Below, one piece after another: positions 3,001 through 6,000 of a stretch of 6,437 nt of DNA (position 1 is its first letter; every line of letters starts with the position of its first letter). Where the stretch lies: the IMG/VR virus record IMGVR_UViG_2541047435_000013; one strand, given 5' to 3'. Origin of the DNA: a virus (Duplodnaviria; Heunggongvirae; Uroviricota; Caudoviricetes). The position numbers were made by a program.

Positions 3001-6000
3001 GGCAGTTCCCATACCAGCAGATAATTCATCAGCGTCCGCTGCAACTCGTTTTTATTTCCTTCACGCAGAGACTGAGCTTTAGTCTTCGCTCCTGTAACAG
3101 GTTCAATGTCATAAACAATCATCGGTGGCGAACAGAATGATTCTGCCTGCAACGTACTTTCGGCACTGAACACACGTCGTCCGGACGTCAGAAACGCCTC
3201 CTGTGGCGTTGAGGGAAACTCCTGCTTCATTTCCTCACGCTGTTCAGTTTCCTTATTGATGTACCACTGCTTCTGTTCATCAGTAAGCGTGATGTTCATT
3301 GCCTTCTCAACCGCAGAAAAATACGTCATTTTTTCCCGTGACAGCTTCAGCCCGCTTTCCGGCACTCTGGCGCTGTATTTAGGATCCTGCCACCAGGCGT
3401 AAAAATGGAATTTATAATCCTGTGCCGTCAGCAATAAGCCTGATGCAGTGATCTCCTGTGCTCGGTTACTCATCTCGTAAAAATCACCACCCACGCCTTC
3501 AGCAGTGGACTCATCAAAAATAATGCATTCATCAGAGACGGCATTAAGCGTACCGGTTCGCAGTTCTTTCGCCTTAGCCGGATATTTCGCGCAAATTTTG
3601 CCGTGCTCTGAGATATGCAGGCGCTGCACCGTACCTGAACGGAATGAGGTTGCCACCTGGATACTCGAGCCGTGACCAAACAGGATATAGCCACCGCTGG
3701 CACCGCTACGACGTTCAACGATGGTGAATGAGGCTCTCAGCCAGTCAGGGAGATGATCAAACGGTACAGCAATTTTTGTGCGGAAAATTTCACTGGCAGC
3801 CTGTTTATCCTGAGCGACGATCCCGCATTTGAGATGCGGAATGAATAATGCCTGGTCGAGAAGATAAATATCAATGGCTGTGGAAAATCCCAGCTGGCGC
3901 GCTTTCAGGATAATATTTTTATTGTGCATGCTCCGGAACAACTGGCGCTGCGCCGGTCGCATTCTGAAGGTGACCAGTTCACCTTTTTCGTTCTGTATTT
4001 TGTAGAGATGATTGAGCCGCCACCAGGGATTGCTCAGTTTAGTCATGATGAACAGACGTTGTTCAGCCTCGGTCATTTCTGACGGCTCATCACATCGCGG
4101 TTCATTCTTCCGGAATGTCATCCAGTCTCCCCGAATTACTCATTTCATGCAGCGATGACACGATGTCACTGACAGGCGTAACAACGCCCCGACGCTGGCT
4201 GGTCAGAATATCGGTTTCAGCTCTGAGTTTATCTCTGGCGGCGTTGATTCTTTCCCGGTCAGCACGAAGTTTTGGTGCTGTCTCAGCCAGGACGTCCAGC
4301 GTCAGCAATGAGCGTTCAATTGACTCGATACGGGCAATATTCCGGTCAAGGGCCTGTTCAGCTTTGAGTATTTTGTCGTAAAGAGCAACACGGGTTTCCA
4401 CGTCAGTTGCCTCTTCCAGGTCGGCGAACATCCCTTTAAGTGCCTTAGTTACTGAAAGTGCGCGGGCCCGGGTGAACACCAGTTCATCGAACAGCACCAT
4501 GTCGGACGCATCATCCATGAGGTTATCTGCCTCAAGATACTTCGCATATCCACGGTGTCTTACGGCGTGGGTGTTTCGCTGAGAAAAAGCGTTTGAAGGT
4601 GGTAAAAGTCGGGAACCACGAATCCGTTTCGTTTCTGCCGAATTTGCGCAGTTTTTTTCAGAGTTTTTTGCGCATTTTTCATCGCCGGAACCCGCGTCAT
4701 TGCAGGGTTCTTCATCTGAGATGTCATGATCGATTTCATGATCGGTTTTATGATCAATTTCATGATCGATTTTGCCCATTTTTATACGGGTTCTGGCGGT
4801 GTTGTAATTAATCTTTTTCTTCCGGCACCAGTCCAGTAATGTTATTCCCGTTTCGGCATGTTCGCGTCGGAATGCCTGCTCCAGCTTTTTCCAGTCCAGC
4901 TTTGCCATGTCACGTTCTGACGTCCTGTGTTAAAAACTGATGCATAATGACCGCTGTGATTTTTCAGATTTCACACAGCAGCACCATATTTGATCGATAT
5001 TTGCACAATGCGGTTGTTTTATCCGGTTTCTTCCACCACCGCACCGGACAGGCGGCTTCGCGGGAAATCGCTCCCATCTCGTGAAAAATGAGAAAACCCG
5101 GTGTGCATCGTTTTTGATTATCCCCGCACACTCCCGCAGAGAAGTTCCCCGTCAGGGCTGTGGACATAGTTAATCCGGGAATACAATGACGATTCATCGC
5201 ACCTGACATACATTAATAAATATTAACAATATGAAATTTCAACTCATTGTTTAGGGTTTGTTTAATTTTCTACACATACGATTCTGCGAACTTTAAAAAG
5301 CATCGGGAATAACACCATGAAAAAAATGCTACTCGCTACTGCGCTGGCCCTGCTTATTACAGGATGTGCCCAACAGACGTTTACTGTTCAAAACAAACAG
5401 ACAGCAGTAGCACCAAAGGAAACCATCACCCACCATTTCTTCGTTTCTGGAATTGGGCAGAAGAAAACTGTCGATGCAGCTAAAATTTGTGGCGGCACAG
5501 AAAATGTTGTTAAAACAGAAACCCAGCAAACATTCGTAAATGGATTGCTCGGTTTTATTACTTTAGGCATTTATACTCCGCTGGAAGCGCGGGTGTATTG
5601 CTCACAATAATTGCATGAGTTGCCCATCGATATGGGCAACTCTATCTGCACTGCTCATTAATATACTTCTGGGTTCCTTCCAGTTGTTTTTGCATAGTGA
5701 TCAGCCTCTCTCTGAGGGTGAAATAATCCCGTTCAGCGGTGTCTGCCAGTCGGGGGCCGGTTGCATTATCCACGCGGGCGGTGCCGGTGGCTTCACGCAC
5801 GGGACCTGGACAGGTGGCGTTGATCCGCAGGCTGCGGTAACCAGCGGCAACGTCAGCGCGAAGAGTTTCATTTTCAGCTCTCGCATCGGCTAATTCCCTC
5901 GAGTATCTGGCATCAAGTGCAGCAACATCACGCTGGCGCTGCTGCATATCAGTAATGGTTGCATTTGCCAGCTCCAGCTCACTGACTTTTTTATCGCGCT

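Follow-up and report, generated by a model that had tools for sequence, protein, structure and literature searches.

A mosaic joint within a conserved non-coding element between bor and the small terminase gene of a 933W-type phage region

The subject of this report is the junction between lysis and packaging genes in a 6,437-nucleotide stretch of DNA (the window; one strand, 5' to 3') from the IMG/VR virus record IMGVR_UViG_2541047435_000013, a member of the Caudoviricetes. Between the small terminase gene terS and bor lies an interval, 4909-5316, which a first-pass annotation made from the sequence alone had taken for a likely recombination joint. A joint is indeed present. Pairwise comparison with lambda and with phage Ss-VASD places the switch from lambda-type to non-lambda DNA at 5128-5133, inside a conserved, non-coding segment of ~185 nucleotides (nt) which we call the post-Rz element (5018-5205, minus strand) and which both parental types possess.

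We regard the following explanation as probable. Its anatomy and breakpoints are shown by the sequence comparisons. The interval consists of three parts, the leader of a Sepvirinae terS, the late-strand element of ~185 nt, and 112 bp upstream of bor. A homologous crossover in the core of the element (5128-5133) and a second one in Rz close a lambda-identical patch of ~600 bp, and this patch carries bor into, or out of, the Sepvirinae backbone. By inference, the element itself would be kept as RNA within the Q-antiterminated late transcript, and its conservation would make it a patch of homology for the reassortment of accessory cassettes and packaging modules.

Placement of the joint

The interval is the exact gap between the ATG of terS (4908, minus strand) and that of bor (5317, plus strand), as had been proposed. 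When the window was compared with lambda 44000-48502 a single high-scoring segment pair was obtained, window 5094-6043 against lambda 46974-46027, which agrees with the stated absence of p78, p79, cos and Nu1/A. The proposal that about 400 bp of intergenic DNA replaces lambda sequence holds for 4909 to ~5021 only; 5094-5316 is 97% identical to lambda 46753-46974, and below 5094 a homology of lower identity, found with a covariance model, runs on to window 5018 (lambda 47036).

On the lambda side of the joint the final mismatch is at 5127, identity is 100% over 5128-5293, and it continues onward to ~5720 save for a difference at 5294. Past ~5750 the sliding identity to lambda drops to 65-85%, and the identity profile shows no alignment below 5094. 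On the Ss-VASD side identity is 100% from ~4560 to 5133, with the first mismatch at 5134. The crossover interval of six bases left between the last lambda difference and the first Ss-VASD difference sits in the element core, GAGTGTGCGGGGATAATCAAAAACGATGCACACCGGG; the 37-nt core is common to lambda and Ss-VASD. Towards and within Rz, Ss-VASD is unalignable with 5642-5763, 93% identical over 5764-6437, and ~100% identical from ~6080.

Read from these alignments, the lambda-like DNA is an internal patch of ~600 bp in a Sepvirinae backbone (5128-5750, the right edge being approximate at 5720-5765), with the second crossover in Rz at ~5720-5765. Starting from Rz, it takes in the 3' end of Rz/Rz1, then a hairpin, bor with its upstream region, and finally 77 nt on the 5' side of the element. 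It falls short of the complete lambda Rz/Rz1-bor unit first described: Rz (i-spanin; 5642-6106, minus strand; Pfam Phage_lysis) is itself mosaic, lambda-identical at its 3' end and Sepvirinae-like in the rest, and Rz1 (o-spanin; 5701-5886, minus strand; Pfam Rz1) is embedded in it. The 3' ends of the two genes (5642 to ~5720) have ~100% identity to lambda, and the 5' parts ~80% nucleotide and 70% amino acid identity. "Near-lambda" is thus an apt description of Bor (96.9% amino acid identity) and not of Rz (70%) or Rz1 (69%), in which only the 3' ends are ~100% identical.

BLAST of 4800-5700 against more distant relatives separates three classes of record by their breakpoints. Lambda-type records share 5094-5700; Ss-VASD and ~90 Stx2a phages share 4800-5201 and have no bor; and for many unrelated lambda-like phages, among them BP-4795, 1717, YYZ-2008, JLK-2012, 4A7 and an N15-like prophage, the shared part is limited to 5022-5201, at 76-78%. 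The likeness of the window to lambda 46427-47042 extends over bor (in the same reverse orientation), its hairpin and its 112 upstream bp, and 77 nt at the start of the element, all at 97-100% identity, and lambda has a full-length element at 46864-47036. The two differ in the middle part of the element, which is degenerate in lambda, and in what comes after the element: p78 (YbcV-like), p79, cos and Nu1/A in lambda, a leader of 113 bp and a terS of the 933W type in the window.

The picture of two unrelated DNAs joined through a spacer has to be corrected, because on either side of the joint the element is common to both parental types and the crossover lies within that shared sequence. Illegitimate recombination, in which ~400 bp of meaningless DNA would link the Rz/Rz1-bor unit of lambda with packaging genes of foreign origin, would account for the end of lambda BLAST homology at 5094 and for the unalignable stretch from 4909 to ~5020, and it would accord with the majority of phage mosaic joints, which lack shared sequence (PMC3029335). 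It is nevertheless very unlikely here. Within 6 bp of the shared 37-nt core the sequence passes from being 100% identical to Ss-VASD to being 100% identical to lambda, the covariance model finds the element at full length in lambda, and the lambda DNA is an internal patch, bounded in Rz by a second crossover. Illegitimate joining is largely refuted by these facts, and a core shared by convergence or chance is implausible given 83 unique copies of the element with conserved edges. That the joint falls in shared sequence speaks for homologous exchange there, at a conserved boundary.

The hypothesis that phages recombine at conserved boundary sequences is an old one, seldom documented at real joints (PMC3029335). 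The conserved boundary sequence, or linker, model of lambdoid mosaicism goes back to Susskind & Botstein (1978) and Clark et al. (2001), as these are cited in PMC3029335. The post-Rz element resembles such a sequence in that it is non-coding, lies between modules, is shared despite differing flanks and has a crossover inside it; it differs in being much longer (~185 nt) than was proposed and in its strand-specific conservation of base pairs. The present joint is thus an uncommon case, a mosaic joint placed within a few bases and in sequence shared by both parents.

A 933W-type late region

The sequence identifies the window as the late region of a Shiga-toxin (Stx) phage of the 933W type (Sepvirinae). 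The window and 933W are 98.8% identical at the nucleotide level over 357-6437. Megablast of 4100-6437 returned 448 matching phage records, 94 of which cover at least 80% of the query; more than 80 records match it unbroken at 99% identity or higher, 933W, VT2-Sakai, Stx2-86, PA2 and others doing so at 99.7-99.8%, and VT2phi_272, P27 and ArgO145 are also among the single-piece matches. Interval 4909-5316 alone is found at 99.8% identity in 933W, VT2-Sakai and more than 120 further records, and nearly full-length in 259 of 5,426 complete Escherichia coli genomes. In the Sakai prophage Sp5 it occupies 1275326-1275733. A continuous homology to one phage across 4100-6106, which had been named as evidence against a joint, is therefore literally present in the 933W-type phages; the breakpoint relative to lambda exists nonetheless.

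Mosaicism between lambda-like phages is a textbook matter, and the gene arrangement described here is not new, having been in GenBank since 933W was sequenced. The joint itself is ordinary and corresponds to the published 933W/Sp5 arrangement. The closest known systems, 933W and VT2-Sakai (Sp5) of the genus Traversvirus (AF125520, AP000422), have the same gene order and essentially the same sequence, with nothing substantial different in the interval; their public annotations leave it empty or give it a hypothetical open reading frame (ORF), and none marks an RNA element. What is added to the known junction is the placement of the crossover to six bases, the patch structure, and the conserved element that holds the crossover.

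Extent and non-coding nature of the post-Rz element

An alignment of the segment in 13 phages shows sharp edges beyond which the flanks are unrelated. A scan of IMG/VR with the core 21-mer recovered at least 120 loci, yielding 132 copies and 83 unique element sequences, and here too conservation starts and ends abruptly. The aligned copies are 59-100% identical (mean 83%). In the window the element is matched by covariance model R1 with 158 bits (E 1e-45).

In most of the 51 copies of a non-redundant set every reading frame is interrupted within the element, and relative to the 933W-type copy 47 of 50 copies carry frame-breaking insertions or deletions, that is, of lengths which are not multiples of three. 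These observations bear on an 81-amino acid ORF (4964-5209, minus strand) which is annotated in many records, as ECs_1218 in Sakai and elsewhere as "hypothetical protein" or "Rz-like spanin". That it specifies a real small protein, and that the conservation of the element is protein-coding, would fit its late-strand orientation, its frequent annotation and its end-to-end match to PHROG 6954 (E 4e-60). We nevertheless consider this extremely improbable. In lambda the frame ends after ~30 codons; in the window the ORF crosses both the element and the crossover and enters leader sequence specific to 933W; and no Pfam or NCBIfam family matches it, leaving PHROG 6954, a family probably built from the same spurious ORF in near-identical Stx phages. 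Since the element is non-coding, the 81-amino acid ORF is probably not a gene and appears to be a spurious call spread through annotation pipelines. The case of ECs_1218 and of the "Rz-like spanin" family PHROG 6954 would then be one of a widely propagated, probably erroneous annotation.

A much shorter frame was considered as a leader peptide and rejected. Most copies start with ATG and contain a 10-codon frame (MRCIVAVFPH) to an invariant TAA (columns 9-41 of alignment A3), in which several of the variable sites are third positions. This mini-ORF lacks a Shine-Dalgarno sequence, the lambda/933W and ev207 variants do not have it, and C-to-U changes opposite G in helices P1 and P2 of the structure described below account equally well for its "synonymous" changes.

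Base pairing on the late strand

In the RNAalifold prediction for the 51 non-redundant copies (a set dereplicated at 97.5%), P1-P2-P3 form a long irregular hairpin and P6 a terminal one; P4 and P5 (hairpin P4-P5) were added by eye. Over the 42 pairs of the model 98.1% of the alignment cells are paired, as against 34-62% when the partners are slid. Changes on both sides of a pair occur at 7 pairs in 24 cells, including 11 G-C to U-A replacements in P6 (11 of 51 copies), and none of 500 shuffles attained the observed pairing, number of double-change cells or covariation score. Among one-sided changes G-U pairs are found in 207 cells and A-C in 13 (22 versus 8 pairs), and because G-U so far exceeds A-C an RNA of the late strand is favoured over double-stranded DNA. 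In the variant carried by 933W and Ss-VASD the middle hairpin has a different sequence, yet still forms a 10-bp stem. P6 is not followed by a run of U residues, and the element has no terminator-like 3' end. Its loop (5035-5050, minus strand) is a conserved segment of 15-17 nt, GCG(A/G)TGGTGGAAGAA, and contains octamers, GATGGTGG or GGTGGTGG, which are one mismatch removed from Chi, GCTGGTGG.

On this model we lean towards the element being a functional structured RNA. The same ~185 bp might instead act as DNA, either as a protein-binding or recombination site or as a neutral linker homogenised by recombination among prophages, the pairing being incidental or that of a DNA hairpin. Such a role would readily explain why the unpaired stretches TAATCAAAAACGAT and GGTGGAAGAA are also strongly conserved, why the folding z-scores reported below are not significant, and why the P6 loop holds Chi-like octamers; moreover, the element is demonstrably a crossover site in this phage. 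We find it quite unlikely, above all because of the G-U bias (207 versus 13 cells), an asymmetry that is not expected of a double-stranded site or of a strand-neutral process. The paired G-C to U-A transversions in P6 also speak against a pure DNA role, as does the orientation relative to the late operon, which is the same in 106 of 107 copies.

Several results weigh against the explanation we prefer. The folding energy of single copies is not better than that of shuffled sequences (z = -1.31 for the window, +0.12 for phage 1717), and single-sequence folding of both strands gave no significant z-scores. The close kinship of the copies limits covariation and may inflate the outcome of the shuffle test, and the model structure was derived in part from the sequences on which it was tested. 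Both the lambda and the 933W copies have two mismatches in P1/P2, and these, together with the degenerate middle part in lambda, may mean that the element is dispensable. The covariance model found no copy in the right ends of HK97, HK022 and P22. The supplement of Tree et al. (2014) records no Hfq-bound small RNA (sRNA) at ECs1217-1219 of Sakai. With respect to the recombination history, these sequences would allow either phage to be the parent or the recombinant. Inside the element Rm reaches at least 11; a PHI-like test, however, showed no distance-dependent incompatibility (p = 0.43); since this test is not significant, recombination at the element is demonstrated for this one joint and not as a general hot spot.

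The element seems to be undescribed as far as the databases and literature searched reach. An Rfam covariance-model scan of the whole window on both strands gave zero matches at E values up to 1, and the core sequence was not found in any relevant context in a literature search. Like the sRNAs AsxR, AgvB, Esr41, STnc100 and PasA-D, the element is non-coding, belongs to lambdoid prophages and is present in several copies per genome. None of these proved to be the same RNA: AsxR (RF02703), AgvB (RF02702), Esr41 and STnc100 have no Rfam match in the window at E up to 1, and the Pas sRNAs differ in size, probes and positions (PasB, 83 nt; PasD). AsxR and AgvB are located 3' of stx/PR' (PMC4104026).

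As to what such an RNA might do, our proposal is a tentative one, to which we would give somewhat less than an even chance: the post-Rz element may represent an undescribed structured-RNA family with its own function in the late transcript, whether mRNA processing or stabilisation or the supply of a trans-acting or immunity-related RNA, and with a side role as an exchange patch for bor/iss cassettes and packaging modules. The RNase III sites of T7 are intercistronic processing signals of polycistronic phage mRNAs. By analogy with these, the element could be a signal for intercistronic processing or for stability, placed where the lysis segment of the mRNA meets the morphogenesis segment. This is our preferred guess at a specific function, though taken by itself a rather unlikely one; a source of a processed trans-acting RNA is about as likely. 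The analogy lies in a long irregular hairpin with internal loops set between blocks of a late transcript. The element is unrelated to the T7 sites by sequence or family, and it is built of three domains, not of a single hairpin. The interest of the element is that it is long, sharply bounded and unannotated, in lambda and K-12 as elsewhere, and that its strand-specific pairing suggests an RNA function which is apparently undescribed.

Distribution and genomic context

Model R1 also matches lambda at 46864-47036 (113 bits), the DLP12 prophage of E. coli K-12 at 579005-579178 (119 bits), Sakai Sp5, and the DLP12 prophage of a B strain; half of the P1 genome, scanned with the same model, contained no copy. 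By BLAST the element is present in 4,142 of the 5,426 complete E. coli genomes (~76%), at 10,695 places and in up to 11 copies per genome, and these copies are almost never annotated. A scan of GTDB with the core 21-mer found it in Escherichia species only, apart from tiny contigs in unrelated assemblies. The latter (351-468 bp and 4-6 kb, with the exact core) come from assemblies labelled Pseudomonas yangonensis, Thiomicrorhabdus, Nanosynbacter and Acholeplasma and are most likely contamination.

In 106 of the 107 informative IMG/VR copies the element is preceded on its own strand by an Rz homologue, at a median distance of 310 nt, and 67 copies are followed, again on that strand, by a terS belonging to one of five classes. 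In phages other than BP-4795 the slot between Rz and the element is filled by genes such as bor, a KilA-N gene pair or Rha, and that between the element and terS by genes such as ybcV/ybcW, ylcI, a TonB-like gene or HNH. A packaging RNA resembling the pRNA of phi29, which the size and position of the element had suggested, was rejected on the grounds that the element precedes five unrelated classes of terS.

Some prophages carry the element twice, the copies lying ~950 bp apart on either side of one gene. Examples are YDC107_1 (2001-2181 and 2955-3130 of locus L009) and locus L020 (5053-5238 and 6003-6188). The arrangement has the look of a cassette that recombination between elements inserted.

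The bor cassette and the terS leader

The bor gene (5317-5610, plus strand) specifies the serum-resistance lipoprotein Bor (Pfam Lambda_Bor, PF06291; E 3e-30) and is oriented against the late operon, between the minus-strand genes Rz and terS. The 112 bp upstream of it (5205-5316, plus strand) are AT-rich (GC 0.36-0.39) and have one difference from lambda, the one at 5294. Here the bor promoter would plausibly be located. The sole promoter-like site in this region, CTGACA-16-AACAAT at 5203-5230, is weak, and 2.0 +/- 1.3 such sites are expected by chance. By eye, a possible late-strand sigma-70 promoter, TTGAAA-18-TATTAA (5195-5245, minus strand), was noticed just upstream of the 5' edge of the element and divergent from bor; it exists in the lambda/933W variant only, the other variants being without it.

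Seven nt past the bor stop codon, and overlapping the stop codon of Rz, is a perfect palindromic hairpin of 11 bp with a 4-nt loop (5617-5642). Its arms are 100% complementary and identical in lambda. It has no run of T/U on either strand and hence was not called by the terminator scan; it is likely to be a 3' end signal for bor. The promoter and terminator scan, which covered 4700-5750, gave one terminator-like site on the plus strand, inside Rz, a number within chance expectation, and none on the late strand between Rz and terS. A read-through signal for terS had been suggested in the interval. Since there is no terminator-like site on the late strand between Rz and terS, no special signal is called for. 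Q antitermination, as established in lambda, already accounts for late read-through into terS.

In BP-4795 the element begins 9 nt past the Rz stop codon and there is no bor, and for this reason bor in the window looks like an insertion; in Ss-VASD two other genes occupy the slot. Taking the edges from these comparisons, we infer that bor, its 112 bp upstream and the hairpin (5205-5641) behave as an accessory cassette (a "moron") inserted between Rz and the element.

The lambda-identical patch is the same cassette as that of the serum-resistance gene iss of plasmids. The iss loci of ColV-type and other E. coli plasmids comprise an Rz fragment, Rz1, iss (the bor homologue) and the 5' half of the element, as in plasmid NZ_CP010149.1 at 7343-8199, and 692 places in plasmids match part of the element. 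They differ from the phage arrangement in being truncated by insertion sequence (IS) elements and in lying outside any late operon. The element may help to explain the movement of iss.

The leader of terS (4909-5021, minus strand) is the only part of the interval without a lambda counterpart. It is 100% identical to Ss-VASD and travels with the Sepvirinae terS: 4909-5093 is found at 99% identity or higher in 218 phage records, all of the Stx/Sepvirinae type.

Packaging module and flanking features

The packaging genes belong to a non-lambda module, of a class that is named as headful. The portal gene (340-2415, minus strand), which encodes a P22-like protein of 691 amino acids, matches Pfam P22_portal (PF16510; E 1.1e-128) over residues 31-648 and is annotated as "putative portal" in 933W. 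The 933W-type terL (2415-4121, minus strand; 568 amino acids; L0113 in 933W) lies within the region of 98.8% nucleotide identity to that phage, and "headful (933W type)" is the name of this class of large terminase in the literature (PMC7317114, PMC6029569). Permuted virion DNA may be expected from a depositor's note, "circularly permutated genome", in record PV189400; a literature search for experimentally determined termini of Stx phages yielded nothing of use. Neither terS nor terL has a Pfam or NCBIfam match; both are named through PHROGs only, terL through PHROG 2, 24361 and 5989, all terminase large subunit families, and the Sepvirinae-type terS (4102-4908, minus strand; 268 amino acids) through PHROG 370, terminase small subunit (E 4e-125). 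The terS sequence has 3 nucleotide differences from the copy in Ss-VASD.

The description of terS as PacA-like was not sustained. BLASTP aligns no more than residues 4-90 of TerS with residues 1-91 of PacA (24% identity over 98 amino acids, E 0.009), the proteins have 268 and 397 amino acids respectively, and the shared part is an N-terminal motif resembling a helix-turn-helix. BLASTP of TerL against PacB of P1 gave no significant alignment (best E 3.7).

Positions 1-356, which follow the 3' end of the portal gene, cannot be aligned with 933W and mark another mosaic edge, at the window's left end. At the other end, beyond Rz, the ORF map and the 933W annotation place the end of an ant-like gene on the minus strand. 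Residues ~46-66 of TerS (4700-4790, minus strand) form a His/Asp-rich repeat, IDHEIDHKTDHEIDHDISDEE, which imperfect tandem repeats of "catgatcgattt" encode.

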